DNA of 64,000 bases from assembly GCA_964536975.1 (NCBI GenBank), contig CAZHYS010000003.1, positions 15,419 through 79,418 of the forward strand, in the 5' to 3' direction. The notes under the pieces are model-generated. The model made no database searches, was not told the DNA's origin, and saw only the letters and a program-made list of their open reading frames with translations. The translations under genes were made by a program, and so were the position numbers. This stretch comes from an uncultured Gammaproteobacteria bacterium (lineage in GTDB: Bacteria; Patescibacteriota; Patescibacteriia; 2-01-FULL-39-33). The stretch's first letter is position 1; the number at the start of each line of letters is the position of its first letter. Positions 8,713-62,830 of this stretch are shown in pieces.

Positions 8713-9057
8713 ATCAATAAGGGTGGTCGCTAGTGGAGTCGCTTGCCTCGCCGAAGCTTTGCGAAGGCGGGAACCACTATTCCTGGACAGCGCTGGATGC
8801 TTACTATGGTCGCATCCATCGACGCTCTCCCGAGAATTCGGGATCGCTTCTGTCCGTCTCGTCAGCTATGGCTGACTTCGACCCTTCCCGATTCATCGGG
8901 ACGCTCTTTCTTTCCGTGACGCTAAGCGCGGCATTAATGGAATTGTTATGAAAGTGTGGTCGCTAGTGGAGTCGAACCACTGACCTTCCCGATTCATCGG
9001 GACGCTCTTTCTTTCCGTGACGCTAAGCGCGGCATTAATGGAATTGTTATGAAAGTG
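8713..9057. repeat. tandem and dispersed duplications of the tRNA-Val 3' end (100-bp unit x2 plus a diverged third copy)
   Basis: The 28-nt tRNA 3' end tggtcgctagtggagtcgaaccactgac occurs at 8958-8985 and in the real gene at 9058-9085. The unit 8885-8985 is repeated at 8986-9085. A partial copy lies at 8723-8741, next to a tcgccgaagctttgcgaaggcgg hairpin. Confidence 0.7.
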
Positions 9058-9131
9058 TGGTCGCTAGTGGAGTCGAACCACTGACCTCATCCACGTCAAG
9101 GATGCGCTCTAACCAACTGAGCTAAGCGACC
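9058..9131 (-). tRNA. tRNA-Val (anticodon GAC)
   Basis: The reverse complement reads GGTCGCT-TA-GCTCAGTTGGTTAGAGC-G-CATCC-tTGACgt-GGATG...GGTTCGACTCC...AGCGACC-A. Confidence 0.8.
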
Positions 9132-9182
9132 GTAATACTTATTTTAATAAAATTCTCAAAATAATTTGAAAATAGTGGTCAT

Positions 9183-9452
9183 TCTTTAAATATGCTTGTC
9201 TCGCCGTAGCCTTGGCGAAGGCGGAAGCTAAGCGACCAAATATCTAATTCCGGTAAGTTTTTAAAATTATTTAAAGACGTTGTCTACTCTTTAAATATGC
9301 TTGTCTCGCCGTAGCCTTGGCGAAGGCGGAAACTAAGCGACCAAATATCTAATTCCGGTAAGTTTTTAAAATTATTTAAAGACGTTGTCTACTCTTTAAA
9401 TATGCTTGTCTCGCCGTAGCCTTGGCGAAGGCGGAAACTAAGCGACCGTAAT
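9183..9452. repeat. about 2.6 copies of a 105-bp tandem repeat; each unit = hairpin tctcgccgtagccttggcgaaggcgga + agctaagcgacc (tRNA-Val 5' end)
   Basis: The units start at 9183, 9288 and 9393 and are near-identical. A single a/g difference separates copy 1 from copy 2. Confidence 0.75.
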
Positions 9453-9499
9453 CAAGAGTATCTTAGTAAAAAAATTGCCAATTGTCAAAGATTTTGCAG

Positions 9500-15339: not shown

Positions 15340-15428
15340 AGAGACGCATCCCGAGTACTCGGGATGCGTCTCTCATGTGAGTAAACCAAAATACTCTGCC
15401 TCAATAATCGTGGCAGAGTATTTTGAGA
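15340..15428. terminator. two hairpins between convergent tyrS and sdpI-like genes
   Basis: Hairpin 1 is agagacgcatcccgagtactcgggatgcgtctct. Hairpin 2 is aaaatactctgcc...ggcagagtatttt, with a T-run on the minus strand. Confidence 0.5.
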
Positions 15429-23509: not shown

Positions 23510-23800
23510 CATTTTCCTCCCCCTTTACAAGGGGGAGGTAGGAGGGGGTAAATTAATTATGATATTTACCTCAATTACCCCTCCCTAACCCGTTCCTGGG
23601 CAGAGCTAATCGCTCCCAATGGTCGCGATTATCTACGCTCGCTTCGCATCGCTTCTGCCCGTCCTTCGGACCCCTTATAAATGGGAGGGAAAGAATAATC
23701 GTAAACAATGCTAACAATTTTTATAATTAAATTTTTAAAATTTTATTTCTTTACTCGTCTCGCCGTAGCCTTGGCGAAGGCGGAAGCTACGCGGACATAA
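23510..23800. repeat. CCTCC hairpin repeats (23516-23549, 23671-23690) and hairpin + cgaaggcggaagcta + tRNA-Arg(TCT) 5'-end copy (23752-23795)
   Basis: The string ctcgtctcgccgtagccttggcgaaggcggaagctacgcggac matches the tRNA 5' end (g)agctacgcggac at 23432-23442. Confidence 0.65.
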
Positions 23801-36643: not shown

Positions 36644-37549
36644 ATGGATCAAGAAAAAATCAGCCAAAATATTATTCAGATAGTCTGCTATTTTGACCTG
36701 TTTGACTATCCTTTGACAGCAATAGAGATTCATAAGTGGCTGCCGGTCAAGGCGGGTTTGGCCGAGGTGGTCGCGGCTTTGAATTCATCCTGGTTTAATG
36801 GCAAAATTGATTGCCGCGACGGCCTGTATTTTCTTTTCGGTCGCCATGATTTGCCGGCCTTGCGCGGTCGCCGCTATCTCTTGGCTGAACGGAAATTCCG
36901 TCGGGCGATTTTTTTGGCAAAAATTTTTTCCCATTTTCCTTATATACGCGCGATCGCGATTTCCGGATCGCTTGCCTATTCCAATGCCCGGCCGGAGAGC
37001 GATATTGATTTATTCATCGTCGCCGCCAAGGGTCGGGCTTGGACGACGCGGTTTTTTGTCAATTCTTTTTTGTCTGTCTTCAATCTGCGGCCGCGTGGCG
37101 ACAATCGCCGCGACAAGATCTGCGCCAGTTTTTTTGTCGCCGCCGACGGGTTGGATTTGAGTTTTATCCGGCATTACCGCGAGGATATTCATTTTGCCTA
37201 TTGGCTGTCGCAGTTTGTTTTTTTGTTTGGCGATGAGGCCGGATTTTTTGCCGCCAATAGCTGGCTGGCCGATTGTTTGCCGAATTTTTATCCTTTCTCT
37301 CTTTCCGCCCGCCGCCGGCTTTCCGGTCGCGCTCTTAGTTGGGACTGGCTAGCCGCCTGGCTGCCAGAAAATTTTTTTCGCAAAATCCAATTGATTATTT
37401 TGCCTCGCCGATATTTGGCGCTCGCCGCCGCCGGCCAAGATGTGGTTTTGTCGGACCAAATGATCAAGATTCACACCGGCGCCAAGGGCCGGCAGGTGGC
37501 AGAAAGGTTAGCGCAAAAAATTGAATCAATTATAAAATCAAATGGATAA
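36644..37549 (+). CDS. nucleotidyltransferase-domain protein
   Basis: It has the minimal NTase motif GSLAYSNARPESDIDLFIV. Confidence 0.55.
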   Translation: MDQEKISQNIIQIVCYFDLFDYPLTAIEIHKWLPVKAGLAEVVAALNSSWFNGKIDCRDGLYFLFGRHDLPALRGRRYLLAERKFRRAIFLAKIFSHFPYIRAIAISGSLAYSNARPESDIDLFIVAAKGRAWTTRFFVNSFLSVFNLRPRGDNRRDKICASFFVAADGLDLSFIRHYREDIHFAYWLSQFVFLFGDEAGFFAANSWLADCLPNFYPFSLSARRRLSGRALSWDWLAAWLPENFFRKIQLIILPRRYLALAAAGQDVVLSDQMIKIHTGAKGRQVAERLAQKIESIIKSNG

Positions 37550-38924
37550 TCTTCGCAAAATAATTGACGGTCTGGTTTATCTTTTCGTCTTTTTACTGCC
37601 TTGGCAAACCGTTTGGATTGTGGAGGAAAGATTTTTGGGCGGCGCCAAGTGGCAGGCCGGCACAGTCGCTATTTACGGCACGGAGATCTTGTTGTGGCTG
37701 ATCATTATTTTGTCGTTGGTCGTTTGGGCTAAAGAAAAAAACAACAAAATGTCTTTTGATTCTTTCCGATCATCTATTACCAATCACTATTTGCCCGTCA
37801 CTGGTTACTCGTTGCTAATTTCTATTTTCCTTCTCTGCTCCCTCCTCTCAATTTTTTGGTCCGGCGATAAGCAGTTGGCGCTCTATTGGTGGATCAAGCT
37901 GGCTGAAGGCATCGTGCTATTTTTTGTTGTTTCATTCGGACGTCTCCGCGTCAGAAAAATCTGTTGGCCGCTCGCTCTATCTGGCGCTGTCCAAGGCGTT
38001 TTGGCGATTTGGCAATTTTTGGTCCAGGAAGTAGCGCCTAATAAGTGGCTCGGCTTGGCCGCGCATTTGCCCGCTGAATTGGGAACGGCCGTTGTGGCCA
38101 CATCGGACGGCCGCTGGCTTCGGGCTTATGGCGCTTTTTCTCATCCGAATATTTTGGGTGGATTTTTGGCAATTAGTTTTTTTGCCACCCTTTTTTTGTA
38201 TCTGAACTATCGTCCCGGCGGCCGGAAAATTATATTAGCGTCGTCTTTATTGGCTATCTCCGGCGGATTATTTTTCAGTTTTTCCCGCAGCGCGTGGCTA
38301 GCGGCAGTGACGGCTTATGGCGTATGGCCTATGGCGTATGGCCTATGGCGTATGGCCTATGGCGTATGGCCTATAGCAAATAGCAAATGGCAAATGGCCG
38401 GCAACAAAAAATTTTTGGAAATTATCAAACCGACATTGTATCTGCTTTTTGTTTTTTTGGTTTTATTCTCTATTTATCGCCCGCTGGTAGCGGCGCGCGT
38501 CGTTTCCAGTGACCGATTGGAGATAAAATCCGTTCAAGAGCGGCTAGACTCTGTTGCTAACGCCGAGCAAATGGTTAAAAGTCATTGGCTTGCCGGAGTT
38601 GGCATCGGTAATTATACTTTTTCGCTTCATCAAAAGAATCCCGGCTTGCCCGCCTTTGCCTATCTGCCGGCGCACAATCTGTATCTTTTGATCGCGGTCG
38701 AGCTGGGCCTGGTCGGCAGCTTGATTTTTCTGGCGATAATCGCATCTTTTTTTCTGTCCGCTTGGCGCCGATCACCCCGGGAGTTTTGGCCGGCAATCTT
38801 TCTGGCGATAATTTTGATCTTGGGCTGTTTTGACCATTACTTTTGGACCAGCTATTCCGGGCTCATGCTATGGTGGCTGACAGCGGCGCTAATTGTAAAA
38901 AAAGAGCCAGATAGCGGCTCTTGA
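37542..38924 (+). CDS. O-antigen ligase/polymerase (Wzy_C)-family membrane protein with an in-frame tandem-repeat insert
   Basis: It is polytopic and has a Wzy_C-like loop. A 14-bp tandem repeat sits at 38306-38396. Confidence 0.55.
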   Translation: MDNLRKIIDGLVYLFVFLLPWQTVWIVEERFLGGAKWQAGTVAIYGTEILLWLIIILSLVVWAKEKNNKMSFDSFRSSITNHYLPVTGYSLLISIFLLCSLLSIFWSGDKQLALYWWIKLAEGIVLFFVVSFGRLRVRKICWPLALSGAVQGVLAIWQFLVQEVAPNKWLGLAAHLPAELGTAVVATSDGRWLRAYGAFSHPNILGGFLAISFFATLFLYLNYRPGGRKIILASSLLAISGGLFFSFSRSAWLAAVTAYGVWPMAYGLWRMAYGVWPIANSKWQMAGNKKFLEIIKPTLYLLFVFLVLFSIYRPLVAARVVSSDRLEIKSVQERLDSVANAEQMVKSHWLAGVGIGNYTFSLHQKNPGLPAFAYLPAHNLYLLIAVELGLVGSLIFLAIIASFFLSAWRRSPREFWPAIFLAIILILGCFDHYFWTSYSGLMLWWLTAALIVKKEPDSGS

Positions 38925-39441: not shown

Positions 39442-41085
<1,644 letters not shown>

Positions 41086-41139
41086 GTATTAGTCCAAAGT
41101 TTATAAAGTTATAAAGTTCATAAAGTCAGGATTTGGAGG

Positions 41140-41480
41140 TGTAGGGGCGGGCAGCAGTTCCCCCTCCTTGTTTGAAGGAGGGGGTAGGGGGAGGTAGGGA
41201 AGGGATATTTTCCGACAACTCCTCCGCCCGAATCCGTAGAAGACGGGGCATGCCCCGTCTTTTTTGGTGTTATTATTGTTTTACCGCGGCGGACTTGGCA
41301 ATCCTATTTCCATACTGTCATCCCGACTAAGTCCGCCACGGCGGACGCATAGAGGGATCCCTCGGCTGCGCATTTCAATCGGGATCGCCATGGTTGTCCG
41401 TCCCAAAGACTCACAATAGCAGTATTTGCCGATTCCACGGATTATAATGTTTATCTGCCGTCGCGGATTCGTAGATTTGT
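41140..41480. repeat. composite repeat: about 110-bp CCTCC-hairpin element (also at 62570-62745), gacggggcatgccccgtc palindrome (also at 56955), and gtcatcccga...gggatccctcg / tccgccacggcggac elements (also at 63240-63600)
   Basis: The stretch 41146-41262 aligns with 62586-62700. The shared core is gttccccctcct..aggagggggtagggggaggt.gggaagggatattt.ccgacaa...cgtaga.gacg. Confidence 0.7.
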
Positions 41481-41574
41481 AATTAATTCGTAGATTTGTG
41501 GGGGATCAATGTTCCATTTTTTGTAATTTCATGCTATAATATTCTAAACTTCGCTAAAAAATAATCCTTAGCGT

Positions 41575-44001
41575 ATGACCAAGAGGTTGCCACTTTTTAT
41601 CCTGCCGATTTTGATGTTGGGAGGATTTTTTGTTTGCGCGGATTTCGCTCGCGCCGCTGATTATGATATTACCGGTACGGAAGTTTGGGAGGGCGGGCAG
41701 ACCATCGTCGTTGACCAGCTTCTAAGCGTCAATGTGACCGGCAAGTTGACTATCAAGCCGGGGACACTGATCAAGATGGGTGAGGGCGCGGCGATTATTG
41801 TTCGCGGCGAATTGATTATTGAAGGCGCGGCCGACAATCCGGTGGTAATCACTTCGCTCAAAGACGATAGTATCGGCGGTGACACCAATGGCGACGGCAG
41901 TGCCACTGTGGCAGCACCCGGCGATTGGTGGACTGTCGCCATCGCCTATCCGACGTCCAAATTTTTTGCTGATTACACGGTCATTCGGTACGGCGGCGGA
42001 CTAAACGGAACCATTGACAGTGTGATCATGTCCATGTCGGCCCAAGAAGTGAAGATAGACCACAGCACTATCGTTGACAACGCCGGCACCATCAGCAATC
42101 GCGTGGATAATTTTCATCTCAATAATTCCAATGTTTACGCTTTTTACGCCGACGAAGGCGAAATGAGCGGCATCAACAACACCGGCGAAGCGGCGATTGA
42201 TTTGACAAATAATTATTGGGGACATCCGGACGGCCCGACGACCGTGGCGGATTATATAAACGGCGACATCAAGGGGACGCTTGTAATGGGCGAGGCAAAT
42301 TATGAGCCGTACAACAGCGAAAAAATAATTTATTCCCGCCGGATTGATCCGGTCATTGTCATTCCGGGAATTTTGGGAAGCTGGAAAGTGAATGGCGAGT
42401 GGCGGTTGGACCCTATCTTGGGTACCTACAACAATCTGATGGAGGCGTTTATCTCCGCCGGCTACTATGAGCCGACTTGGGCAAATTGGCTCTTGGGTCG
42501 CAAGCCGACCCTATTTGCTTTTCCGTATGACTGGCGGCAGGACAACGCTATCACCGCGGATATGCTCAAGGAAAAAATTCAGGAGGTGAAGGAGAAATCC
42601 GGCCGCGACAAAGTGGATATTGTCGCGCATTCAATGGGCGGACTGGTGGCGCGGGCGTACATACAGAGCGACGATTATCAAAACGATGTGGATCAGGTGA
42701 TTTTTCTCGGCACGCCACATTTGGGGTCGGTGGATAGTTACAATAGAAGAGAAGGTGCTTATTTTGGAAATAAACCAATAGATTTTTTATTTAAAACAGT
42801 TTTTCAATTAGAGGCCAATGCCAACGGCTATTTGAGCTTGGTTGACTATATTAGAAATGAAGTGCCGACGGTCGGCCAATTATTGCCGATCTATGATTAT
42901 CTGAAAGACAAAACCGCCGGCGTTTGGCAACTCCGAAGCTATCCGACCAATTATCCACGAAATGAATTTTTGGAAGGCCTCAACTCCGCCGACAGGTTGT
43001 CGCGTTTGACCCAGCGGACAAATGTCACCAATATCATTGGTAATATAAGTGAAGGCACCTTGCGCTATATCCGAGTCGTTCCCGACCCAAATACCAAGGA
43101 CAAACTGTGGCAATACGGCTATCCGGAAAATCTGCGGGACAATGAAAATTCTTTTGAGTCGGCAGACGGCGACGGCACTGTCTCTGCCAACAGTTCTAAT
43201 GCGATTTCCGACGCGCGCATGATTGAGCTGTCCGGCGATCATCTGGCGCTCCCCACTCTCGCCCAGCAGGATGTGATTGAAGCTTTGACTGGCCGGCGGC
43301 CGACCGCGTATCTTGATAACGCGCAAGCTTACAATGCCCGCCGTTGGACTATTTTGCGGGTGTATTCGCCGGTGGATTTCGTGGTTATTGATCCGCTTGG
43401 CCGCCGCGTGGGCAAGGATTTTGCCAATAGCACGACGACCAATGAGATTGCCGGCGCGTTTTATACCGGCTTTGACAGCGAAGTGGAATTTGTCGCCATT
43501 CCCGATCCCGTGGACGGCGAGTATCGGGTGGAGCTTCAGGGTGTTGATGGCGGTGGCGAATACAAGCTGGCAGTGAGCTTTGTTGACGAAGATAATGCGT
43601 CTCTTAACAGCGAAGCGGAAGTGAAGTCGTTTATCGCCGCCGGCGCCGTTGATAGCTTCACGGTTGATTATAGCGCGTCTTCTACCGCCGAGCCGTCTTT
43701 TGAGTCGGAAGTTGATTTTGCCAAGTTGATAGATATTACCAATGCTCTATACGAGCAAAAGGAGATAGCCAAAAAAGAAATTTACAAGATCTTGATCAAT
43801 GATTTCCGCCAGCTGGAGAAAAACTACAATCAAATGGATGGCAAGCACAAGCTCAAAGATAAAATCTTGGAAAAATATATCATCGTCCGCTTGGAAATTA
43901 TCAAGAAAAGCCTGGAGCTGTATCAGCGCCATAAATGGATTTCTACTACCGCCAAAAATGTGCTCGTTTCAAATATAAATTTGTTAATTAATAAATTTTA
44001 A
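41575..44001 (+). CDS. secreted alpha/beta-hydrolase (lipase/PGAP1/LCAT-like GxSxG: VAHSMGGLVARAY) with N-terminal beta-helix-like domain
   Basis: It has a signal peptide, an N-terminal repeat-rich domain, a Ser hydrolase motif and a C-terminal coiled coil. Confidence 0.6.
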   Translation: MTKRLPLFILPILMLGGFFVCADFARAADYDITGTEVWEGGQTIVVDQLLSVNVTGKLTIKPGTLIKMGEGAAIIVRGELIIEGAADNPVVITSLKDDSIGGDTNGDGSATVAAPGDWWTVAIAYPTSKFFADYTVIRYGGGLNGTIDSVIMSMSAQEVKIDHSTIVDNAGTISNRVDNFHLNNSNVYAFYADEGEMSGINNTGEAAIDLTNNYWGHPDGPTTVADYINGDIKGTLVMGEANYEPYNSEKIIYSRRIDPVIVIPGILGSWKVNGEWRLDPILGTYNNLMEAFISAGYYEPTWANWLLGRKPTLFAFPYDWRQDNAITADMLKEKIQEVKEKSGRDKVDIVAHSMGGLVARAYIQSDDYQNDVDQVIFLGTPHLGSVDSYNRREGAYFGNKPIDFLFKTVFQLEANANGYLSLVDYIRNEVPTVGQLLPIYDYLKDKTAGVWQLRSYPTNYPRNEFLEGLNSADRLSRLTQRTNVTNIIGNISEGTLRYIRVVPDPNTKDKLWQYGYPENLRDNENSFESADGDGTVSANSSNAISDARMIELSGDHLALPTLAQQDVIEALTGRRPTAYLDNAQAYNARRWTILRVYSPVDFVVIDPLGRRVGKDFANSTTTNEIAGAFYTGFDSEVEFVAIPDPVDGEYRVELQGVDGGGEYKLAVSFVDEDNASLNSEAEVKSFIAAGAVDSFTVDYSASSTAEPSFESEVDFAKLIDITNALYEQKEIAKKEIYKILINDFRQLEKNYNQMDGKHKLKDKILEKYIIVRLEIIKKSLELYQRHKWISTTAKNVLVSNINLLINKF

Positions 44002-44006
44002 AATTT

Positions 44007-44402
44007 ATGAAAATAAATTGGTCAAAAATTTTAATTTCATATTTTTCGGTGTTAATTTTGGTAGTTTTCTTAAGCTCAGTCGCTGCCATCGTTTTTGCGG
44101 GTAATTTGTATCAGTCTATATTCAGTCCCGTTTATAACTCTGGTTTATTAACCTTAGGAGGAGAAGGTTTGGATACCTTTTTAGGTGGCTTTTTGTTGTC
44201 ATATGCTTTATTATTGCCTTTACTATCATTCCTTATCATTTCCAGTAAAAAATGGATTTGTTGGCTTATTTTTATAATTCCATTCTTATTTTTCTTTTTA
44301 ACTGATAGCAAATGGTTTTCATGCTTCATCATCCTCACTATCCTCGGCGGCCTCATCGGCTGGCTGATTAAGTTGGTTTACACAAAGATCAAAAAACAGT
44401 AA
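44007..44402 (+). CDS. hypothetical 4-TM membrane protein
   Basis: It is hydrophobic and lies 5 nt after the preceding gene. Confidence 0.45.
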   Translation: MKINWSKILISYFSVLILVVFLSSVAAIVFAGNLYQSIFSPVYNSGLLTLGGEGLDTFLGGFLLSYALLLPLLSFLIISSKKWICWLIFIIPFLFFFLTDSKWFSCFIILTILGGLIGWLIKLVYTKIKKQ

Positions 44403-44404
44403 AA

Positions 44405-44790
44405 CCATTTTCCCTCCCCTTTATAAGGGGAGGGCAGGGAGGGGTATTATCACCCTGTCCGCCTTTATATTACGAACGAGGGAGCCTTTATAATTCTTCC
44501 CCCTCCTTACGAAGGAGGGGGTAGGGGGAGGTCAGATTAATTTATCCCCCCAATTTTTCCTCCCCTTACCAAGGGGAGGAGCCTGCCCTGAGCGAAGCCG
44601 AATGGGTATCTCCCCCCCCCTTGTTCTAAAGAAGGCATCTCTGTTCTTCCCCCTCCTTACGAAGGAGGGGGTAGGGGGAGGTCAGATTAATTTATTTCCA
44701 CCGCCCCCGCCAAAACCGATTACAATTTTGGCGACCCCTCCTTCGGACAAGGAGGGGTAATAAAAATACGAGGGGAGGGTTTTTTATGTG
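44405..44790. repeat. cluster of at least 5 CCTCC hairpin repeats incl. an exact 54-bp duplication (44504-44545 = 44644-44697)
   Basis: Member sequences are ccctcccctttataaggggaggg, ccccctccttacgaaggagggggtagggggagg (twice), cctccccttaccaaggggagg and cccctccttcggacaaggagggg. The shared motif cctgccctgagcgaagccgaatgg is also at 52150 and 57590. Confidence 0.8.
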
Positions 44791-44805
44791 TAATAGATGT
44801 GATTG

Positions 44806-44841
44806 ATCTCCGGAGATGTCTCCATAGATATCTCCGGAGAT
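44806..44841. repeat. left boundary palindrome atctccggagat-gtctccatagat-atctccggagat
   Basis: It contains two perfect 12-bp palindromes. The right-hand counterpart is at 50951-50974. Confidence 0.7.
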
Positions 44842-44910
44842 TTTTAGTTTGACTTTTGGAGCCGAAAGTGGGAAAATTATGGTATTAATTTAATTCTTGT
44901 TTCCAAAATT

Positions 44911-46944
44911 ATGGCAAAAATCTTAGAAATCATCAAAGACTCAAGTTATAATCTTTCAATTTTTGATCAGAAACTGATTGACGAGCTGGAAGGTAAAGTC
45001 ACCACAAAAGACGGCAAATCTTATGTTGTTTGCGCTATCCGAGATAAAGAAATAATTTTGAAGCCGGAGGAGGTTGTCCGCCAGCTCTATGCGATGAAAC
45101 TGCTTGAAGATTACGGCTATCCAAAACAAAGAATCAAATTTGAACACGCAATCCATTTTGGCCGTGAGGTAAAATCTGCCGACATTGTTATTTTTGACAA
45201 AGACCGCCCGACTGTTGAATACATCATTGTTGAAATTAAAAAACCAAAACTCCAAGACGGAAAAAACCAGCTCCGCTCCTACACCAACGCCACTGGTGCG
45301 CCGATTGCCGTTTGGACCAATGGTGGACAAATTTCGCATTACAACCGCAAAGACCCAAATTACTTTGAAGACATTACCGATATTCCAAAAGCCGACCAAA
45401 CGCTTGAAGATATTTTGAAAGAAAGATTTACTCTTAAAGACTTAATCATCAAAGACAAAATCCCGAACGAGGGGAAATCGCTCAAAACCATTATTCAGGA
45501 AATGGAAGATGAAGTTTTGGCAAATGCGGGCGTAGATGTCTTTGAAGAAGTTTTTAAACTTATTTTCACCAAACTGTACGATGAATTACAGAGCAAAAAA
45601 GACAAAATGCGTCTGGAAATTTATCTTGAGGATAAATTAAGCAAAGAAGATCGCGGAGATTATGACAAAGTAAAAGAAATTTTGGCAAAAATTGACGATT
45701 CCAGTTTCAGAGTTTTGGAATTTAGAAACACAGGTCAATCCGAGAGCGAACTAAAAAATAAAATTCAAAAACTTTTTGACGAAGCCAAAGCCAAATGGCC
45801 GGGCGTTTTTGACGAAGCAAGCCAAATTCAGCTTTCGCCCTCTCATCTTTCCGTCAGCGTTTCCAGTTTGCAGGATATAAAACTTTTCAATTCCAATCTG
45901 CAAATCATAGACGAAGCCTTTGAATACTTGGTCAATAAATCATCAAAAGGCGAAAAAGGCCAATACTTCACGCCTCGTCATGTGATTGATATGTGCGTCA
46001 AAATGCTCAATCCGAAAGCTGGCGAATACATGGTAGATACTGCCGCCGGTTCTTGCGGATTTACCGTTCATACGATTTTTCAAATCACCGGACATTTATT
46101 CCAAAACACCGACATTTCCGAGGAAGAAAAAGAAAATGTGCTTAAAGTATTCGGTATTGATTTTGATGAAAAAGTCGTGCGCGTTGCTCGCACTTTAAAC
46201 TTGATCGCCGGAGACGGAAATACCAACGTTTTACATCTCAACAATCTTGATTATGAACGCTGGAATGAATCAATCCAAAATCGCGACTGGCTGGAAGTGT
46301 ACGGAGCGGGATTAAAACGCCTCGAAGCTCTACAAAAAGATAAAAGTTCCTACAAAGAATTTAATTTTGATATTCTCATGGCAAATCCGCCATTTGCCGG
46401 AGACATCAAAGAATCGCGCATAATCCACAAATACGATCTTGGCTACAACGAAAAAAACAAACCAAAATCAAAAGTTGGGCGCGATATTTTGTTTATCGAA
46501 AGAAACTTAAACTTTTTGAAGCCGGGCGGAAGAATGGCGATTGTTTTACCACAAGGCCGTTTTAATAATACTTCTGACAAGGCAATTCGCGAGTATATCG
46601 CCGAAAAAGGCAGAATCCTTGCCGTAGTCGGGCTTCATGTAAACACTTTTAAACCGCACACGGGAACAAAAACCAGCGTGCTTTTTGTGCAGAAATGGGA
46701 CGACAAGCTTTGCCCGAAAGTGGAGGATTATCCGATTTTCTTTGCCGTTTCCGAAAAATCCGGCAAGGACAATTCCGGCGAGTATGTTTTCGTCAAAAAC
46801 GGCAACAATCAGCCGAAACTAGATAAAAATGGGCACTTGATAATCAATCATGACTTGCACAATCACGACGGCGAATTGCCCGACGGCGTAGCGGAAAAGT
46901 TTATTGAATGGGCGAAGTCGGAAAAATTAAGTTTTTGGAAATAA
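44911..46944 (+). CDS. restriction-modification fusion protein: N-terminal PD-(D/E)xK (HsdR_N-like) domain + gamma-class N6-adenine methyltransferase (BcgI-like Type IIB / Type I HsdM-like)
   Basis: It has the nuclease-like motif ADIVIFD...EYIIVEIKKP. The MTase motif I is VDTAAGSCGF and motif IV is NPPF (LMANPPFAG). No HsdR is nearby. Confidence 0.7.
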   Translation: MAKILEIIKDSSYNLSIFDQKLIDELEGKVTTKDGKSYVVCAIRDKEIILKPEEVVRQLYAMKLLEDYGYPKQRIKFEHAIHFGREVKSADIVIFDKDRPTVEYIIVEIKKPKLQDGKNQLRSYTNATGAPIAVWTNGGQISHYNRKDPNYFEDITDIPKADQTLEDILKERFTLKDLIIKDKIPNEGKSLKTIIQEMEDEVLANAGVDVFEEVFKLIFTKLYDELQSKKDKMRLEIYLEDKLSKEDRGDYDKVKEILAKIDDSSFRVLEFRNTGQSESELKNKIQKLFDEAKAKWPGVFDEASQIQLSPSHLSVSVSSLQDIKLFNSNLQIIDEAFEYLVNKSSKGEKGQYFTPRHVIDMCVKMLNPKAGEYMVDTAAGSCGFTVHTIFQITGHLFQNTDISEEEKENVLKVFGIDFDEKVVRVARTLNLIAGDGNTNVLHLNNLDYERWNESIQNRDWLEVYGAGLKRLEALQKDKSSYKEFNFDILMANPPFAGDIKESRIIHKYDLGYNEKNKPKSKVGRDILFIERNLNFLKPGGRMAIVLPQGRFNNTSDKAIREYIAEKGRILAVVGLHVNTFKPHTGTKTSVLFVQKWDDKLCPKVEDYPIFFAVSEKSGKDNSGEYVFVKNGNNQPKLDKNGHLIINHDLHNHDGELPDGVAEKFIEWAKSEKLSFWK

Positions 46945-46970
46945 ATTATAATTTTAAATTACACAATCTT

Positions 46971-48053
46971 ATGAAGAAAAAAAATATTGAAGAATTAAAT
47001 AATGAATTTTTTGAAAAAGAAGATTCTGACGATGAATCTTTAAAACTTAAAGGGCCAATTATTAGTTATGGGGCGGACTACACTCTCGATTCAATTCGAC
47101 AGTACGTAAATGAGAGTAAGCAAATTATTGTACAGCCAAGCTTCCAAAGAAAATTTGTTTGGGATATAAAAAAGGCCAGCAAATTAATAGAATCTTTCAT
47201 TCTTGGTTATCCCGTGCCGAACATTTTGCTTGGGAGAGATCCTGATACTGAGGTCATGGAAGTAATAGATGGCCAGCAGAGAATTTTATCTATATGCGAC
47301 TTCTTTAAGGGCAGATTTAGAGACGAAAAAGTTTTTAAGTTAGCTGGCGATATTGACCAAAAATTTTTAAACAAAACCTTTGACGACCTAGATGAAGCTA
47401 TTCAAAAGAAATTAAGAAACGCGGTTTTGAAGGCTGTGGTCTTTGTCTATCCAAAAGATGACCCAAATATAAAATTTACAGCATTTCAACGTATTAACAC
47501 GGGGAGCGTTGTTTTAAACCAGCAAGAAATCAGAAACTGCATTTATGGGGGATCGTTAAATGATTTACTATTTAAAATAAATGAATACAACGAAGAATGG
47601 AGAGAACTCCTTGCTAAAAAACCGGATAAAAGAATGAAGGATGTAGAAACAATCTTGAGATTTTTTGCCGCTTACTTTAAAGGAAAAGATTATGAAAAGC
47701 CAATCACTAAATTTCTTAACGAATTTATGAATAAGAATAAAAATCTTTCTGAAGAAAAAGGAGCCGAATGGCAAGAATTATTTAACCAAACACTATCTAT
47801 CATTGTAAAAAATATTGGTAGCTCATTTCCCCGCACATCAAAATCAAAAACATTTAATAGAGCAGTTTTTGAATCTGTTATGACCGCCATAGCAGAACTG
47901 AAGAAAGAAAATAGGCTAAAAGTCAAATATTTAAAACGAAACTATACCAAACTAGTAGAAGATCCTAATTATCTTGATTCGGTAACTTCACAAACTTCCG
48001 ACAAGAAAAACTATAAAAACAGGATTGAAATAGCAATTAAAATGCTCTCGTGA
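46971..48053 (+). CDS. DUF262 (ParB/Srx-like NTPase/nuclease superfamily) domain protein
   Basis: The DGQQR motif (VIDGQQRILSI) is present. The ORF track starts at 46908, overlapping the RM gene stop. I use the ATG at 46971. Confidence 0.65.
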   Translation: MKKKNIEELNNEFFEKEDSDDESLKLKGPIISYGADYTLDSIRQYVNESKQIIVQPSFQRKFVWDIKKASKLIESFILGYPVPNILLGRDPDTEVMEVIDGQQRILSICDFFKGRFRDEKVFKLAGDIDQKFLNKTFDDLDEAIQKKLRNAVLKAVVFVYPKDDPNIKFTAFQRINTGSVVLNQQEIRNCIYGGSLNDLLFKINEYNEEWRELLAKKPDKRMKDVETILRFFAAYFKGKDYEKPITKFLNEFMNKNKNLSEEKGAEWQELFNQTLSIIVKNIGSSFPRTSKSKTFNRAVFESVMTAIAELKKENRLKVKYLKRNYTKLVEDPNYLDSVTSQTSDKKNYKNRIEIAIKMLS

Positions 48054-48063
48054 TTTTATATGT

Positions 48064-48624
48064 ATGAACGTTATTTTGGAAAGAAAAAAATATGTTGTTC
48101 GATTACTCGAGAATATAGAGAATTATCCTTCTACCAATCAATTCAAGCAAGAAATGATGACCTTTTCGTATGTTATAGTTTGTGGCGCTATTGAATTTAT
48201 GACAGAAACCATAATACAAGATTGGTTGAGTAAAACAATCAAACATCATAAAAGCTCATCCTACTATCGGGGGAGAAAATATGTTCAATATTTTTTAGAC
48301 ATTCAATCTCAAGCGCGAGAAAAAAATATTGACGATTTTCATAGTACAAACTTAGATAGCATTAGAAATCTTATTAAAGAGATGGCGGGAGAAACAGCGC
48401 GGAATAAATTTAATAACTTGTTTCAAAGTGCTCAAAACACTTTGGCATTGCAGCCGGATTTAAACGAGAGACTTAAACGAATTACCGATACTCGTCATTA
48501 TTTAGCCCACGGACAAAAAGTCCCAAATGATATACAACCCAATGTCCGGGAATTAAGAGAAGATTTTCTTTTTATATACAAGCATATTATAAATAATATC
48601 AAAAAATGTTTACCAAAAGTATAA
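48064..48624 (+). CDS. hypothetical protein, putative HEPN-like (Rx4H motif RHYLAH near C-terminus)
   Basis: It is alpha-helical with a C-terminal R-x4-H motif. It sits between the MTase and S subunit, like the abortive-infection and PrrC-like passengers of Type I loci. Confidence 0.35.
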   Translation: MNVILERKKYVVRLLENIENYPSTNQFKQEMMTFSYVIVCGAIEFMTETIIQDWLSKTIKHHKSSSYYRGRKYVQYFLDIQSQAREKNIDDFHSTNLDSIRNLIKEMAGETARNKFNNLFQSAQNTLALQPDLNERLKRITDTRHYLAHGQKVPNDIQPNVRELREDFLFIYKHIINNIKKCLPKV

Positions 48625-48631
48625 AATAACT

Positions 48632-50050
48632 ATGCAATATTCAGTTGTAAAATTCAAAGGAGTTTTAGTCGATAATGACATATTCAGATTCGATGCTGAT
48701 TATTTTTATCCAAAATCATACAACCTTTATAAAACGATAATAAATAAAAATTTTGCAAGAGTGAAAGAAAGTTTTAATGTTACAAAATTAGCTGGTTTTG
48801 AATACACCAAATATTTTACTGATCCAAATATCAATTCAGACGATTTCTATATTGTTTTAACCAGTAAGAATATTCAAAACGAAGAATTGGTCTTAAATGA
48901 ATATCTTAAAATTGACAAAAAAGTTGCTGACGAATTTTTGAAGCGTTCTAACCTTAAAAAAGGAGATGTTGTTTTGTCATATACTGGGGAATATAGAAGA
49001 GCATTAGTTCTAGAAGAGAACGATTTTCAACTTGGACCAAATATCTGCCTCATTCGTAGCAAAAATAAAAATATCGATTCTTATTATTTATCTACTTTTT
49101 TAAATTCTAACGCTGGTCAGCTTTTACTTGATCGTGAAAAAACACTTTCTGCACAACCTACTGTCGCGATGTCAAGAATAAGAGAAATACCAATTCCGGT
49201 GTTAGATATAGATTTTCAAAATCGAATTGGTGAAATTATTACATCATCAAAAACAAAAAGAAAATCTGCAAACAATCTCTATTTCCAAGCCGAACAATTA
49301 CTCCTTTCCGACTTGGGGCTTTTGGACTGGAAGCCAAAGCACGAACTGGCTTTTGTCAAAAACTTTTCCGCAACACAAGAATCCGAGCGTTTTGACGCAG
49401 AGTATTTTCAACCAAAATACGAGGAAATCGTTGATGCAGTGAAAAAATACAAAGGTGGATTTGATGAATTGGGCAATTTGGTAAAAATCAAAGACAAGAA
49501 TTTTACGCCCAAAGACAACGAGCAATACAAATACATTGAGCTTGCCAACATTTCATCAAACGGCGAAATAAATGGCTACATTGAAAATTTTGGCAATGAA
49601 CTGCCGTCAAGAGCGCGTCGTAAAGTACAAAAAGGCGATCTGATTGTTTCGTCCATTGAAGGATCACTTGAAAGTATTGCTTTAATAACGGAAGACTGGA
49701 AAAACGCTTTATGCTCCACCGGATTTTTTGCTGTCAATTCAGATAAAATTAATTCCGAAACCTTGCTTATTATATTAAAAACAAAAATCGGGCAATTGCA
49801 ACTAAAGAAAGGTTGCAAAGGAACAATTTTAACCGCTATCGGCAAAGAGGAATTGTCCAAAATAGTTTTGCCAAAAATTGATTCAAAAACGCAACAAGAA
49901 ATCAAAAAGAAAATAACTGAGATGTACGAAACGAAAAAATTATCTAAATCATTACTTGAAATTGCCAAGCGAGGCGTGGAAATGGGAATAGAAAAAGACG
50001 AGCAAGAAGCAGAAAAATGGATCAATAAAGAGGTTAAAAAAATTAATTAA
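48632..50050 (+). CDS. hsdS: restriction-modification specificity (S) subunit with two TRDs
   Basis: It has the HsdS/BcgIB-like duplicated target-recognition architecture and conserved spacer helices. Confidence 0.75.
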   Translation: MQYSVVKFKGVLVDNDIFRFDADYFYPKSYNLYKTIINKNFARVKESFNVTKLAGFEYTKYFTDPNINSDDFYIVLTSKNIQNEELVLNEYLKIDKKVADEFLKRSNLKKGDVVLSYTGEYRRALVLEENDFQLGPNICLIRSKNKNIDSYYLSTFLNSNAGQLLLDREKTLSAQPTVAMSRIREIPIPVLDIDFQNRIGEIITSSKTKRKSANNLYFQAEQLLLSDLGLLDWKPKHELAFVKNFSATQESERFDAEYFQPKYEEIVDAVKKYKGGFDELGNLVKIKDKNFTPKDNEQYKYIELANISSNGEINGYIENFGNELPSRARRKVQKGDLIVSSIEGSLESIALITEDWKNALCSTGFFAVNSDKINSETLLIILKTKIGQLQLKKGCKGTILTAIGKEELSKIVLPKIDSKTQQEIKKKITEMYETKKLSKSLLEIAKRGVEMGIEKDEQEAEKWINKEVKKIN

Positions 50051-50053
50051 CAT

Positions 50054-50950
50054 ATGTCCACCTACTACAACCCAAACAGAGACGCCTCTTGGAACTATGG
50101 CGGAAATAATTGGAAATTAAGCCGGTCAAAGATTGATTTGTTTTTGGAATGTCCAAGATGTTTTTATTTGGATAATAAACTCGGCACAAAGCGAGTGCCC
50201 GGATTCCCTTTTTCTATAAATAGCGCGGTGGATTATCTTTTAAAGCAGGAGTTTGATTCCTATCGTGTTAAAAACGAACAACATCCACTTCAAAAAGAAT
50301 ATGGTATAGATGCTCGGCCAATGTCGCACGCCGAGCTGGATGAATGGCGGCGGAATTTTGGCGGCGTCAGATATCTGCACGAACCGACCGGACTGTTGGT
50401 GACCGGCGCGATTGATGATTTGTGGGTGACTATCCCTCCCACCTCCCCTAGCCCCTCCTCGGGCAGGAGGGGAAAGTTAGAATATTCGGCAAACCCCTCT
50501 GTGTCTCCCCTTGGAAAGGGGAGAAAGTCAGAAGATTTGGCAAACCTCTCCGCGTCTCTCCTTGGAAAGGGGGGAAAGTTTGAGCCGGAATGTATTGTGG
50601 TTGATTATAAAGCTACAGCCAAAGATGAGGCCGTAAAGGAATTAGATAAAGAGTGGCAAGATGGCTACAAACGGCAAATGGAGGTGTACCAGTGGCTACT
50701 GCGGAAAAATGGTTTGAAAGTCTCTGATGTTGGTTATTTTGTTTATTGCACCGGCAAAATGGATCGCCAGGCTTTTGACAAGAAGATTGAATTTGATGTT
50801 AATTTAATTGAACATAGAGGTGATGATTCTTGGGTAGAGAAAACTCTTTTTGACATCAAGAAGTGTCTGGACGGCGACGTCATCCCGAAGTCTGGCAAAA
50901 GTTGTGATTGGTGCGCTTATTTCGCGGCCAGAAAAAAATCAGAAAAATAA
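50054..50950 (+). CDS. Cas4-like / RecB-family PD-(D/E)xK nuclease with 4-Cys cluster, carrying an in-frame insertion of CCTCC hairpin repeats
   Basis: The N-terminal CPRCFY and C-terminal CDWCAY form a CxxC pair. The core reads IVVDYK and the QxxxY-like motif is MEVYQWLL. The inserted repeats lie at 50440-50590 inside the frame. Confidence 0.55.
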   Translation: MSTYYNPNRDASWNYGGNNWKLSRSKIDLFLECPRCFYLDNKLGTKRVPGFPFSINSAVDYLLKQEFDSYRVKNEQHPLQKEYGIDARPMSHAELDEWRRNFGGVRYLHEPTGLLVTGAIDDLWVTIPPTSPSPSSGRRGKLEYSANPSVSPLGKGRKSEDLANLSASLLGKGGKFEPECIVVDYKATAKDEAVKELDKEWQDGYKRQMEVYQWLLRKNGLKVSDVGYFVYCTGKMDRQAFDKKIEFDVNLIEHRGDDSWVEKTLFDIKKCLDGDVIPKSGKSCDWCAYFAARKKSEK

Positions 50951-50974
50951 ATCTCCGGAGACATCTCCGGAGAT
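50951..50974. repeat. right boundary palindrome atctccggagac-atctccggagat
   Basis: It matches the left boundary at 44806-44841. Confidence 0.7.
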
Positions 50975-51058
50975 CGCCAGTTGATTTTTGGTGAATAATG
51001 TGAAAAGATTATAATTGGTAAGAATACAATTAATATATTGGTCGGTGATATTTTAATT

Positions 51059-51559
51059 ATGCATGACAAAGAAAAAAATTACGCTTTTATTGATAGCCAA
51101 AATCTGAACCTGGGAATTCAGAGCTTGGGGTGGAAGTTGGATTACAAAAGATTTAGGATTTATTTGCGGGAGAAGTATGGCGTTGAAGTTGCCTATTTGT
51201 TTATTGGCTATATACCAGGAAATCAGGATTTATATTCATCGCTTCAATCTTGCGGGTATGTTTTGGTTTTCAAGCCGACCATTCCCGATCAGAATGGAAA
51301 TATAAAAGGAAATGTTGATGCCGACTTGGTTTTGCAGGCGTTATTGGATTATGAAAAATATGACAAGGCAGTTATCATCACAAGCGATGGAGATTTTTAT
51401 TCTTTGGTTAAATACTTATATCGGCAGGGCAAATTAAAATTTGTCATGAGCCCATATATCAAAACTTGTTCCATATTGCTCAAGAAAACAGCACAAGAAA
51501 GAATTATTTTTATGGATAATCTAGAGAAAAAACTTAGTTATAATAAAAAACACCGCTAA
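51059..51559 (+). CDS. NYN/LabA-like PIN-fold domain protein (putative RNase)
   Basis: It has YAFIDSQNL, DADLV and ITSDGDF motifs typical of NYN domains. Confidence 0.6.
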   Translation: MHDKEKNYAFIDSQNLNLGIQSLGWKLDYKRFRIYLREKYGVEVAYLFIGYIPGNQDLYSSLQSCGYVLVFKPTIPDQNGNIKGNVDADLVLQALLDYEKYDKAVIITSDGDFYSLVKYLYRQGKLKFVMSPYIKTCSILLKKTAQERIIFMDNLEKKLSYNKKHR

Positions 51560-51962: not shown

Positions 51963-52322
51963 GACCTCCCCTACCTCCTTCTCGTATTTTTATTACCCCT
52001 CATTGTTTGAAGGAGGGGTCGTCAAAATTGTAATCAGTTTGATTTTTCCTCCCCCTTGTTTGAAGGGGGAGGACAGGAGGGGGTGAAAAAATATTAATTA
52101 GACCTCCCCTTACCCCCTCCTTCAGACAAGGAGGGGGAAAAGATGCCAGCTCGGCTTCGCTCAGGGCAGGCTCCCTCCTCCATCCGCCAAAGGCGGACAA
52201 ATGGACAAGGAGGGGGAATAAATCCTGTATCTTTCCCTACCCCCCCCTCACCCCTAATTTTTAGCCCCTAACCCCTAATCGTTAAACGCTAACAGCTAAT
52301 CGCTAATTGCTAATCCCTGTCC
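51963..52322. repeat. cluster of CCTCC hairpin repeats + ctaatcgctaattgcta word repeats (left flank of helicase gene)
   Basis: There are at least 4 hairpin copies, and ccctaacccctaatcgttaaacgctaacagctaatcgctaattgctaatcc runs up to the ATG. Confidence 0.75.
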
Positions 52323-62424: not shown

Positions 62425-62830
62425 TAGTTTATAAAGTCTATAAAGTTCATAAAGTTTGTAAAGTCAGGAACTAGGAGTTAGGAATTAGCGTTTAGCGATT
62501 AGGGGAAAATGCAATAATTATAAAGTCAAAAGCCTATAAAGTTCGTAAAGCTTGTGGTGAGCGAAGTCGAACCATCGGATGTAGTGGCGGGTAGCGGTTC
62601 CCCCTCCTGGTCAGGAGGAGGGGGATAGGGGGAGGTTGGGAAGGGATATTTCCGACAATGCCCCCGCTCGATTCGTAGAGACGCGATTCATCGCGTCTAT
62701 AGTAGAGATGTTCCGATCCCGAGGACTCGGAAGGGGCGCCTCTTTTTGTTTATGGTTGGGGATTTCTTAGGGATGGGGCTCTTGTCTCGCCGTAGCTTAT
62801 GCGAAGGCGGATGCCCCCGTCTGGTTTGAC
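62425..62830. repeat. word repeats (ataaagt), second copy of the about 110-bp CCTCC-hairpin element, gacgcgattcatcgcgtc palindrome, and tctcgccgtagcttatgcgaaggcgga hairpin variant
   Basis: The stretch 62586-62700 aligns with 41146-41262. Confidence 0.7.

Follow-up and report, generated by a model that had tools for sequence, protein, structure and literature searches.

Rickettsia palindromic elements (RPEs), reportedly described within protein-coding genes by Ogata and colleagues in 2000, are the nearest known precedent for the insertion considered here. This insertion lies in a gene for a Cas4-like nuclease on contig CAZHYS010000003.1 of assembly GCA_964536975.1. The whole stretch of 64,000 nucleotides (nt) that was analysed, positions 15,419 to 79,418 of the contig, is called the window. 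Within the nuclease gene, three units of a hairpin repeat that is otherwise intergenic enlarge a single predicted surface loop, and the open reading frame (ORF) runs through them.

RPEs insert in-frame into many genes (review PMC10969869). Like the repeat in the window, they are short palindromic sequences (~100-150 base pairs, bp) that have proliferated in a small genome. They lie in-frame in conserved ORFs, are absent from the orthologues, add a peptide at a place compatible with the fold, and leave the host gene intact. The window shows the same combination of a multi-copy genomic repeat, orthologues that lack it, a preserved frame and an intact host ORF, and the models also place the insert at the surface, on a hairpin tip with both flanking strands retained. 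However, the two kinds of element have no sequence relation. The repeat in the window is a G/C-rich three-segment motif combining mirror and inverted symmetry, and its genome is of the Patescibacteria type. RPEs are described in many unrelated genes, whereas in the window one gene is hit, and in its family the same loop is hit repeatedly by different repeats.

[quoted passage not shown] The insert differs from these in lacking the combination of terminal inverted repeats and target-site duplication that marks a MITE, and no associated transposase was identified.

The repeat itself resembles the elements of the BoxC/PIT class, which are said to have been described by Hoyne and colleagues in 2000. 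In Holder et al. 2015 (PMC4666352), BoxC/PIT/TMECO is given as 5'-CCCTCNCCC N3-6 GGGNGAGGG N3 GGGNGAGGG. This is a C-rich stem, a loop, a G-rich stem, a short loop and a mirror G-rich stem, with a complementary class on the other strand. According to the same paper, such triplex motifs are abundant, G/C-rich, multi-copy and almost all intergenic. They often form tandem-inverted pairs and are linked both to variable or rearranged loci and to local genomic instability. The repeat in the window shares these features of sequence and arrangement, and arrays of it bracket the defence island in which the nuclease gene lies. Its pyrimidine stem, complement and mirror copy follow one another on one strand and agree with at most one mismatch, which would allow C.G-G or C-C.G triads.

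There are also several differences. The stems are 7-8 nt long, compared with 9 nt in the described elements and at least 8 in the published triplex search (ITxF), and the first loop is 7-11 nt, compared with 1-6 in that search. The sequence differs from CCCTCNCCC, and the host is neither a proteobacterium nor a cyanobacterium, unlike the hosts described in the paper. In-frame intragenic copies are present in the window but were not seen in the part of the paper that was accessible, and the paper documents no de novo insertion. Its symmetry marks it as a potential intrastrand triplex motif, comparable to BoxC/PIT/TMECO.

The host gene also has described relatives. Hudaiberdiev et al. 2017 (PMC5704561) noted Cas4-like pfam12705 nucleases and found solo-Cas4 over-represented in small-genome bacteria from the candidate phyla radiation (CPR). 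The nuclease of the window shares with these proteins a PD-(D/E)XK core, the D...DxK and QxxxY motifs, and conserved cysteines flanking the core. It likewise lies outside CRISPR-cas loci, beside restriction-modification and other defence genes. Its own family, known here from sequence and models, is unusually conserved by comparison. Identities are 65-88% across candidate phyla such as Buchanan-, Falkow-, Harrison-, Nomura-, Blackburn-, Andersen- and Uhrbacteria (loci L015-L089, 75 species).

The enlarged loop is evident from alignments of protein and DNA alike. Homologues read GAIDDLWI-NGKG-EYIVVDYKAT at this place, where the window protein has 54 residues, and the alignment puts the insert between the catalytic residues D121/D122 and D184-x-K186. 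The spacing from W124 to V182 is 57 codons in the window and 8 codons in 60 of 60 matching loci. A degenerate DNA pattern for IDDLW...VVDYK spans 54 nt with a 24-nt gap in the same 60 loci, compared with a gap of 171 nt in the window. The net gain is 147 nt, or 49 codons. The initial annotation had proposed an insertion of about 150 bp at 50440-50590, which agrees with the aligned boundaries (Table 1) to within ~15 nt, and the peptide it quoted is the real in-frame translation. One peptide of the predicted loop is LEYSANPSVSPLGK. The insert has a G+C content of 56%, against 43% for the remainder of the gene. It shows a tandem period of 51 nt over 50472-50579 with 85% matches (TRF), and a repeat search finds three hairpins spaced 51 nt apart.

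Homologues free of the repeat also lack the loop. Scanning 185,579 species, each represented by one genome, gave 75 loci, all ~744-750 nt long and all without the insert. The insert is also absent from the best 120 of at least 8000 protein homologues. The junction peptides IDDLWVTI and GKFEPECI do not occur outside the window in the species scan, the 54-residue insert peptide has no relative among 5.8 billion protein cluster representatives, and the 64-kb window holds no paralogue of the nuclease. No exact direct repeats flank the insert; a flanking similarity of 19 nt (79%) represents two segments coding for beta strands. The junctions share only microhomology of the GAATA type.

The three units in the insert follow one layout. 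A C/T block is followed by 2-3 nt, a C/T arm, a loop of 7 nt, a G/A arm and AAAG. The first block mirrors the arm, and the last is its reverse complement. The claim that the insert holds three copies of the genome's intergenic CCTCC-type hairpin repeat is confirmed at the positions given in Table 1, although "hairpin repeat" can be made more specific. The hairpin is present as part of a three-segment intrastrand triplex motif with mirror and inverted symmetry. The hairpins are evident from this symmetry and not from energy. The RNA folding energy of the insert gives no advantage over composition-matched shuffles (z = -0.12; ViennaRNA, which models Watson-Crick pairs only).

Evidence for the origin of the linkers comes from an unrelated Patescibacteria metagenome contig, L092. 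In this contig, an intergenic array 3' of the nuclease reads ...GGGGAATATTCGGCAAACCACCCCCTCCCACCCCCTCTTACTCTCCCCCTCGGGCAGGGGGAG..., twice, and contains the linker ATTCGGCAAAC, the leader CCCTCCCACC and the TCGGGCA loop, as in unit 1 of the window. Because linker, leader and TCGGGCA unit occur together in this intergenic array, the linker belongs to the repeat family and not to the host gene. Unit 1 is also homologous to the single-unit inserts of two further metagenome contigs, L095 and L096. Within the window, the 22-nt linkers (AAAGTYAGAAKATTYGGCAAAC) are found in the insert only. The 11-nt linker ATTYGGCAAAC has one exact match elsewhere in the window (37275-37285), which is at chance level, and is absent from the window's other copies of the repeat. 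Judged by these sequences, the insert is a fragment of a repeat family with multiple units that occurs across Patescibacteria. Units 2 and 3 with their linkers may represent a local duplication. An alternative origin of the 51-nt period, in which one unit was duplicated in tandem along with host codons (K-L-E-Y), was rejected, since linker ATTCGGCAAAC and leader CCCTCCCACC sit in the intergenic array of L092.

The repeat is common in the window. Fifteen strict three-segment elements are found in its 64 kb, compared with none in 30 Markov shuffles, and 12 of the 15 lie outside the nuclease gene. In every copy that is not its own mirror, the third block matches the mirror of the arm (0-1 mismatch) and not a direct copy (at least 2 mismatches). 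Between copies, the single T changes position in concert in all three blocks (mirror, arm and complementary arm). Although ~85% of the window is coding, 17 of its 20 hairpin loci are intergenic, and the three genic ones are all in the nuclease gene. An Rfam gathering scan of the window reports 7 tRNAs and no family at the repeats or the insert. Only 3 three-segment elements occur in ~650 kb of loci from 75 other species. The repeat has therefore undergone a lineage-specific expansion in this genome, to about 1 copy per 4 kb.

The insert could be an artefact, either a chimera formed at the repeat or a recent pseudogene that is still open. Repeats break short-read assemblies here, and contigs from Logan stop at the clusters flanking the island. 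Two of the six reading frames are open across the insert, making openness alone unremarkable, and a related genome has a pseudogenised copy of the gene. However, the exact 298-residue product is found on five separately assembled Logan contigs. Two of these, from runs SRR11845626 and SRR11845623, were fetched and match the window with 100% identity across 7.35 and 6.87 kb. Both stop at repeat clusters near 44.7 and 52.0 kb, yet run through the array in the gene. A one-off chimera is unlikely, because separate contigs traverse the insert. The three units are distinct enough for unique assembly, every conserved residue is retained, and ten other in-frame alleles at the same site come from unrelated JGI metagenomes. 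Overall, an artefact or dead gene is very improbable.

Another possibility is that the insert is removed before or during translation, in the manner of an intron or intein or by bypassing, so that the mature protein would have the normal 249 residues. The insert is rich in hairpins, and Patescibacteria are known for intervening sequences in their rRNA genes. However, the insert has no match to an Rfam family, its 150 nt are too short for a group I or II intron, and the junction residues of inteins are lacking. The frame is open and the lengths of all 11 alleles are multiples of 3, which would be unnecessary if the insert were excised at the RNA level. Such removal is extremely unlikely, the least probable of the explanations considered.

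The position of the insert in the protein can be seen by comparing predicted structures with and without it. In the AlphaFold model of the insert-less homologue P0001 (pLDDT 87.6), a strand at 122-126, a turn of four residues and a strand at 131-141 are predicted with pLDDT 93-95. In the window protein, the strands at 122-126 and 180-189 are kept, residues 131-174 have pLDDT below 50, and the insert scores 31-47. The insert is thereby predicted to be a disordered surface loop at the tip of the beta-hairpin between D121/D122 and D184-x-K186, with the catalytic core intact. From the topology of the fold, the hairpin tip would lie five to six residues from the active site.

The nuclease belongs to the Cas4/RecB-like PD-(D/E)XK enzymes by its sequence profile and predicted fold. 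It passes the Pfam threshold for PDDEXK_1 (PF12705; 44.1 bits against a cut-off of 22, E = 3e-11), which is also annotated on every one of the best 120 homologues. The hidden Markov model (HMM) cut-offs for Cas4 are not reached (PF01930, 18.6 bits against 22.7; TIGR00372, 24.3 against 65), and the Cas4 models of PADLOC give E = 6e-6 to 1e-4 at best. Because only the PDDEXK_1 threshold is passed, "Cas4-like", of the pfam12705 sort, is the correct name and "Cas4" is not. Relative to Cas4 of CRISPR loci it is at best a "solo" protein. A search of the PDB with the sequence profile of the family found no relative, and its placement there comes from fold comparison alone. The predicted fold is Cas4-like, matching Cas4, Dna2, RecE, MGME1 and Exo5, the first three most closely. 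The RecB/Cas4-type assignment of the initial annotation is upheld in this form, together with the VVDYK core and the QxxxY-like motif.

The cysteines are a further point of difference. The canonical Fe-S module of Cas4 has four conserved cysteines, one N-terminal and three C-terminal, in the pattern C ... CX2CX5C. In the window family the pattern is CX2C ... C-X12-CX2C. Both of the CxxC pairs claimed previously are present, but they are incomplete as a set of ligands, since C271 and C232 (78 of 81 family members) are conserved as well. The candidate ligands may hold either an Fe-S cluster or Zn.

Constraint on the protein is strong. The residues D60 and E66 are invariant across the 81 family members along with the catalytic residues in Table 1. 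Outside the loop, the window protein is 78-88% identical to the close homologues that were aligned, which are 248-252 residues long, and it has the conserved residue at every column with at least 95% conservation among 66 homologues. Because no strongly conserved column is affected and the catalytic residues are invariant, the sequence gives no sign of decay. The best 120 of the at least 8000 homologues are mostly 248-255 residues long, typically ~249, and their host names are those of Patescibacteria, such as Staskawicz-, Uhr- and Woesebacteria and Paceibacterota. In the longer homologues that were aligned (261-278 residues), the extra length is a C-terminal extension.

Three relatives deserve separate mention. 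The contig sharing the best protein segment with the window (94%; L084, CAZKQL010000066.1) has a run of 22 N at 780-801, starting at the insertion point (...GATGATTTGT). Either a scaffold gap caused by a repeat or masking is possible. In Candidatus Magasanikbacteria GW2011_GWA2_37_8 (LBTN01000040.1, 4715-5360; L014 / L086), the nuclease copy is a pseudogene. A deletion of ~100 nt removes WRRNF...GAIDDLWINGKG, including the catalytic Asp, and ends at the GAATA junction used by insertions. The 90% cluster that includes the window protein is represented by the C-terminal gene fragment of this record, and the gene also lies behind a defence cassette (EcoRI-like methyltransferase, GmrSD-HNH and reverse transcriptase). 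Finally, the nuclease is encoded, with its loop gap at the canonical 24 nt, on three predicted viral contigs of 55-59 kb (IMG/VR; L100-L102). Mobile elements may also spread the family, or the contigs may be fragments of CPR genomes that were misclassified.

The insertion in the window is not unique. The DNA flanking the loop follows the pattern ATTGAYGAYYTNTGG...GTNGTNGAYTAYAAR, and a metagenome scan for these flanks, limited to loop gaps of 48-78 nt, found enlarged loops on 10 contigs, or at least 10 family members besides the window. Their gaps are 48, 72, 51, 72, 60, 60, 69, 60, 69 and 51 nt. All ten are multiples of 3, which has a chance of ~3e-5 if the ten are independent and of ~6e-3 for five independent events. 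In all ten alleles the ORF is open and the catalytic residues D, D, K, Q and Y are kept. The claim that a repeat had landed in the gene with the frame kept holds, but not as a singular event.

Different repeats have used this loop. Six to seven of the ten alleles contain triplex-motif units. In L091, L092, L094, L095, L096 and L097 there is one unit each, in the same orientation as in the window. Among these, L095 (ARTPTPSDSPSGRGRELEY followed by IVVDYK) and L096 have three features in common with unit 1 of the window, namely its leader, its TCGGGCA loop and a tail of the TTAGAATA type. In L093, L098 and L099 there is a different, REP-like hairpin of the TTCCCGC..GCGGGAATGAC type (TTCCCGCCTMCGCGGGAATGAC), and L090 has a perfect palindrome of 13 bp. 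The insert of L098 (1103-1201) looks nested, with a REP-like ATTCCCGCCTACGCGGGAAT hairpin followed by a remnant G-arm of a triplex motif (GGAAGGGGGAGACAATTG), which suggests turnover of repeats within the same loop.

The proteins from these metagenomes are ~49-55% identical to the window protein. In a neighbour-joining tree built without the loop columns, the window protein nests among insert-less relatives, and the other insert alleles branch beside insert-less sequences at no fewer than three separate points. This pattern points to at least four independent gains. There were probably more, because different repeat families occur within one clade. The same loop is a recurrent, tolerated landing site for in-frame hairpin repeats.

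With moderate confidence, the insert can be regarded as a passenger, a selfish repeat array surviving in the sole permissive turn of a strongly constrained nuclease. The nuclease is a member of a very conserved Patescibacteria family that in many species forms the last gene behind varied defence cassettes, and a G/C-rich three-segment repeat has expanded in this genome lineage. In this model, an array of three units with ATTYGGCAAAC linkers would have entered the DNA for the tip of the beta2-beta3 hairpin, which has the catalytic Asp on one side and DxK on the other. Its 147 nt, in a stop-free frame, would yield a disordered loop of 49 residues rich in Pro, Ser, Gly, Lys and Arg. This loop would protrude from the distal end of the hairpin, leaving the catalytic core and the conserved residues unharmed. 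The insert would persist since this turn alone tolerates extra residues, and insertions that break the frame or disrupt the core would be purged by selection. Such a filter would result in in-frame insertions of hairpin repeats at exactly this turn, as in the at least ten other family members.

The passenger model draws on the observed presence, position and frame of the insert, its kinship with the repeat, its recurrence and the intact conserved residues, while the mode of insertion it proposes is a deduction from sequence. A number of points weigh against it. The activity of the enzyme, the translation of the loop and the formation of triplexes are predicted ones. The assemblies that support the insert come from the same study and are 100% identical, perhaps from the same population, and are not fully independent. 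All seven triplex-motif insertions share one orientation, three divergent hosts (window, L095 and L096) have the subfamily with the CTCCCACC leader and the TCGGGCA loop, and many right junctions read TTR-GAR-TAY. None of the three follows readily from a pure selection filter, and together they hint at some preference of target or orientation. Moreover, no other site tolerant of insertions was seen in the family, and the DNA at this place could be special.

These points lead to a model of site-specific targeting, the main rival, which is possible but rather unlikely. The DNA coding for the turn (ancestrally ...TGG ATT AAT GGA AAA GGC GAA TAC...) would be a preferred site of integration or template switching. 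This could proceed by microhomology, for instance between TGGAAAAGG and TTGGAAAGG loops, or through GAATA at the right junction. Recurrence would in that case stem from the mechanism and not from tolerance alone. The uniform orientation extends to all three GGGAATGAC-type insertions, and the hosts with the common leader and loop are only ~52-55% identical. The element tail GAATAT followed by TCGG overlaps the host sequence GAATAC followed by ATTG, and the deletion in the Magasanikbacteria US58 pseudogene ends at the same GAATA. Among the best 120 of at least 8000 homologues, no insertions lie elsewhere in the gene. Conversely, the site has received repeats from three unrelated families, neither a transposase nor a target-site duplication is evident, and the 75 loci from other species have an empty site. 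As evidence, microhomologies of 5-8 nt are weak, and the search was confined to this site, which biases any comparison between sites.

A stricter version, in which the turn-coding DNA is a true integration site that hairpin and triplex-motif repeats enter in a specific orientation, is improbable. If true, it would provide the first direct snapshots of the movement of BoxC/PIT-type repeats, with clean empty and filled sites in close relatives. In a bolder form, the nuclease itself may recognise or process hairpin or triplex DNA and act in cis on its own gene, similar to REP-associated tyrosine transposases (RAYTs) and REPs. This form is weakened by the wide occurrence of the nuclease in genomes in which the flanking 650 kb contain almost no such repeats.

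The loop might also have been retained because it is useful, although this is quite improbable. It might serve as a flexible basic arm (Arg/Lys/Gly) contacting DNA, or as surface variation that evades nuclease inhibitors encoded by phages. Alternatively, a structured mRNA or DNA element might tune expression or promote rearrangement of the island. The insertions are recurrent, always in-frame and kept in highly constrained genes, and many of their translations contain GRG, GKG or RGK stretches. Triplex motifs are linked to local genomic instability (PMC4666352), and the island is bracketed by arrays. However, the peptides vary widely among alleles, and certain ones, for instance PYEGEGE, are acidic or neutral. 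By prediction the loop is disordered, it lacks a conserved motif and has no relative in the cluster search, and the vast majority of the family has no insert at all.

Both the kind of event and the class of repeat are known, and their combination is new within the searchable literature: triplex-motif repeats in a Patescibacteria genome, translated (by prediction) inside a Cas4-like nuclease, in a loop hit repeatedly across lineages. Triplex-motif repeats have so far been intergenic elements of obscure mobility, mainly from Proteobacteria and Cyanobacteria. They proliferate in Patescibacteria-type genomes as well and can be newly acquired at a defined site, with filled and empty alleles in relatives that are 88% identical. 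Such pairs of alleles are a concrete system for asking how these repeats spread. The theme of selfish DNA in protein-coding genes, known from Rickettsia, is extended to another lineage with reduced genomes. The twist is that a single catalytic-hairpin loop of a conserved nuclease is hit repeatedly, always in-frame, by at least three repeat families, which makes the question of tolerance versus targeting testable. If the insert is only a neutral passenger, it would be a tidy example, though a modest one, of a process already known.

Table 1. Location of the nuclease gene, its insert and the surrounding features in the window (position 1 is the first nucleotide).
Feature	Position	Strand	Remarks
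Cas4-like PD-(D/E)XK nuclease gene	50054..50950	+	298 residues, intact ORF; starts 3 nt past the stop of the HsdS-like gene
C33-P-R-C36 pair, candidate metal or Fe-S ligands	50150..50161	+	N-terminal; C36 invariant, C33 in 78/79 (81-member family set)
D121-D122, catalytic Asp, start of strand beta2 (GAIDDLW)	50414..50419	+	invariant in 81/81; strand E122-126 in both AlphaFold (AF2) models
Loop segment V125-P178, 54 codons	50426..50587	+	replaces the ancestral 5-codon turn I-N-G-K-G; net +147 nt; translated VTIPPTSPSPSSGRRGKLEYSANPSVSPLGKGRKSEDLANLSASLLGKGGKFEP
Triplex-motif unit 1: CCTCCCC-TAG-CCCCTCC-tcgggca-GGAGGGG	50442..50472	+	mirror and inverted symmetry perfect; preceded by leader CCCTCCCACC
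Linker 1: AAAGTTAGAATATTCGGCAAAC	50473..50494	+	22-nt linker, within the window confined to the insert
Triplex-motif unit 2: CCCCTCT-GTG-TCTCCCC-ttggaaa-GGGGAGA	50494..50524	+	symmetry perfect
Linker 2: AAAGTCAGAAGATTTGGCAAAC	50524..50545	+	matches linker 1 at 19/22 positions
Triplex-motif unit 3, degenerate: CCTCTCC-GCG-TCTCTCC-ttggaaa-GGGGGGA	50545..50575	+	stem kept by two T-G wobbles, + strand
D184-Y-K186, (D/E)xK catalytic motif, strand beta3	50603..50611	+	invariant in 81/81; strand E180-189
Q208-M-E-V-Y212, QxxxY motif of RecB/Cas4-like nucleases	50675..50689	+	Q208 and Y212 invariant in 81/81
C-terminal cysteines C271, C284 and C287 (the last two as C284-D-W-C287)	50864..50914	+	C271 in 76/79, C284 and C287 both invariant (family alignment)
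Tandem palindrome ATCTCCGGAGAC-ATCTCCGGAGAT	50951..50975	.	right after the nuclease stop; 92% complementary (I8)
Upstream defence genes	44911..50050	+	same orientation as the nuclease; Pfam and PADLOC
Type I methyltransferase	44911-46944	+	Pfam, PADLOC
GmrSD_N/NsnA-like	46908-48053	+	Pfam, PADLOC
HEPN RiboL-PSP	48064-48624	+	Pfam, PADLOC
Type I specificity subunit (HsdS-like)	48632-50050	+	Pfam, PADLOC
NYN-domain gene	51038..51559	+	downstream of the nuclease; Pfam, PADLOC
Left arm, nested inverted repeats of triplex-motif units	44456..44772	.	I1 60 nt at 92%; also I2, I3, I5
Right arm, nested inverted repeats bracketing the island	51981..52199	.	
Intergenic three-segment repeats	7731, 7799, 9698, 23517, 30765, 39358, 41161, 44413, 44500, 44650, 52048, 52103, 62600		

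The nuclease gene lies in an island of 7.2 kb that also holds the methyltransferase, GmrSD_N, HEPN, HsdS and NYN genes and an ORF of 87 residues, between arms of ~300 nt. It looks like a mobile or invertible cassette, or a hot spot of rearrangement. The G+C content is 29-35% across 47-50 kb, compared with ~45% elsewhere in the window. The self-complementary sequence ATCTCCGGAGAT occurs in 2-3 tandem copies upstream of the first gene of the island (44805-44841) and again after the nuclease stop (50951-50975). It is a possible operator or terminator delimiting a unit of five genes.

The context proposed by the initial annotation, a defence island with neither cas1/cas2 nor a CRISPR array, is real. 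No Cas1 or Cas2 match is found among the 56 ORFs of the window with PADLOC or among the Pfam families listed, and TRF finds no CRISPR-like array there. The other 45 ORFs are housekeeping genes. One ORF among the 45 of at least 80 residues outside 39448-50950, 51038-51559 and 52307-55164 matches the PADLOC models for Csa3 (E = 4e-17); there is no other cas gene. A 23S rRNA intervening-sequence protein (PF05635) is also encoded in the window.

Across species, the nuclease gene usually lies 1-30 nt downstream of highly variable defence genes (L015-L089, 75 species). An ORF on the same strand ends at most 30 nt from the nuclease start in 37 of the 72 species loci with a placeable start. The 39 such upstream neighbours include 9 defence reverse transcriptases (AbiP2/DRT-like), 5 ResIII, 3 HsdR, HerA, OLD/AAA_15, methyltransferases, RhuM and others. 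In an example of how such loci vary, two near-identical contigs (L003 and L004) have as their sole difference an MmeI-like gene inserted just upstream of the nuclease.

This arrangement suggests that the nuclease anchors, or travels with, a hot spot of defence genes. Its designation as a defence gene is supported by an association that is strong across species, but the function itself is a candidate one, assigned by guilt by association. An extremely conserved Cas4-like nuclease is the terminal gene behind cassettes of the reverse transcriptase, restriction-modification, HerA and OLD types in about half of the 72 species loci. It is a candidate for a shared accessory or anchor of CPR defence islands.

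The repeats of the window show some further variety. Two pairs, 7731/7799 and 52048/52103, are tandem-inverted. Some copies lie 7-10 nt upstream of an ATG (examples at 23511 and 30759), and there the GGAGG block could also serve as a ribosome-binding site. For the intergenic copies, an SD-like reading of the GGAGG purine segments, with sequestration of the ribosome-binding site, was considered as well. A repeat of 95 nt at 41140-41234 and 62580-62674 (73% identity) extends the triplex-motif unit with GGTAGGGAAGGGATAT, and its four successive G-runs are a possible G-quadruplex motif.

Other repeats occur near tRNA genes. An exact tandem duplication of 101 nt (8883-9087) adjoins or overlaps tRNA-Val (9057-9131). 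Just before tRNA-Ile there is a tandem array of 105 nt in 2.5-3 copies (9150-9464). This array holds a second hairpin family, CGTCTCGCC..GGCGAAGGCGGAA, which is also found at 1624, 23748, 62781 and 63308. Finally, a 14-nt microsatellite (GGCCTATGGCGTAT x 4.5) at 38312-38399 runs into 7-nt repeats (ATAGCAA and GCAAATG).

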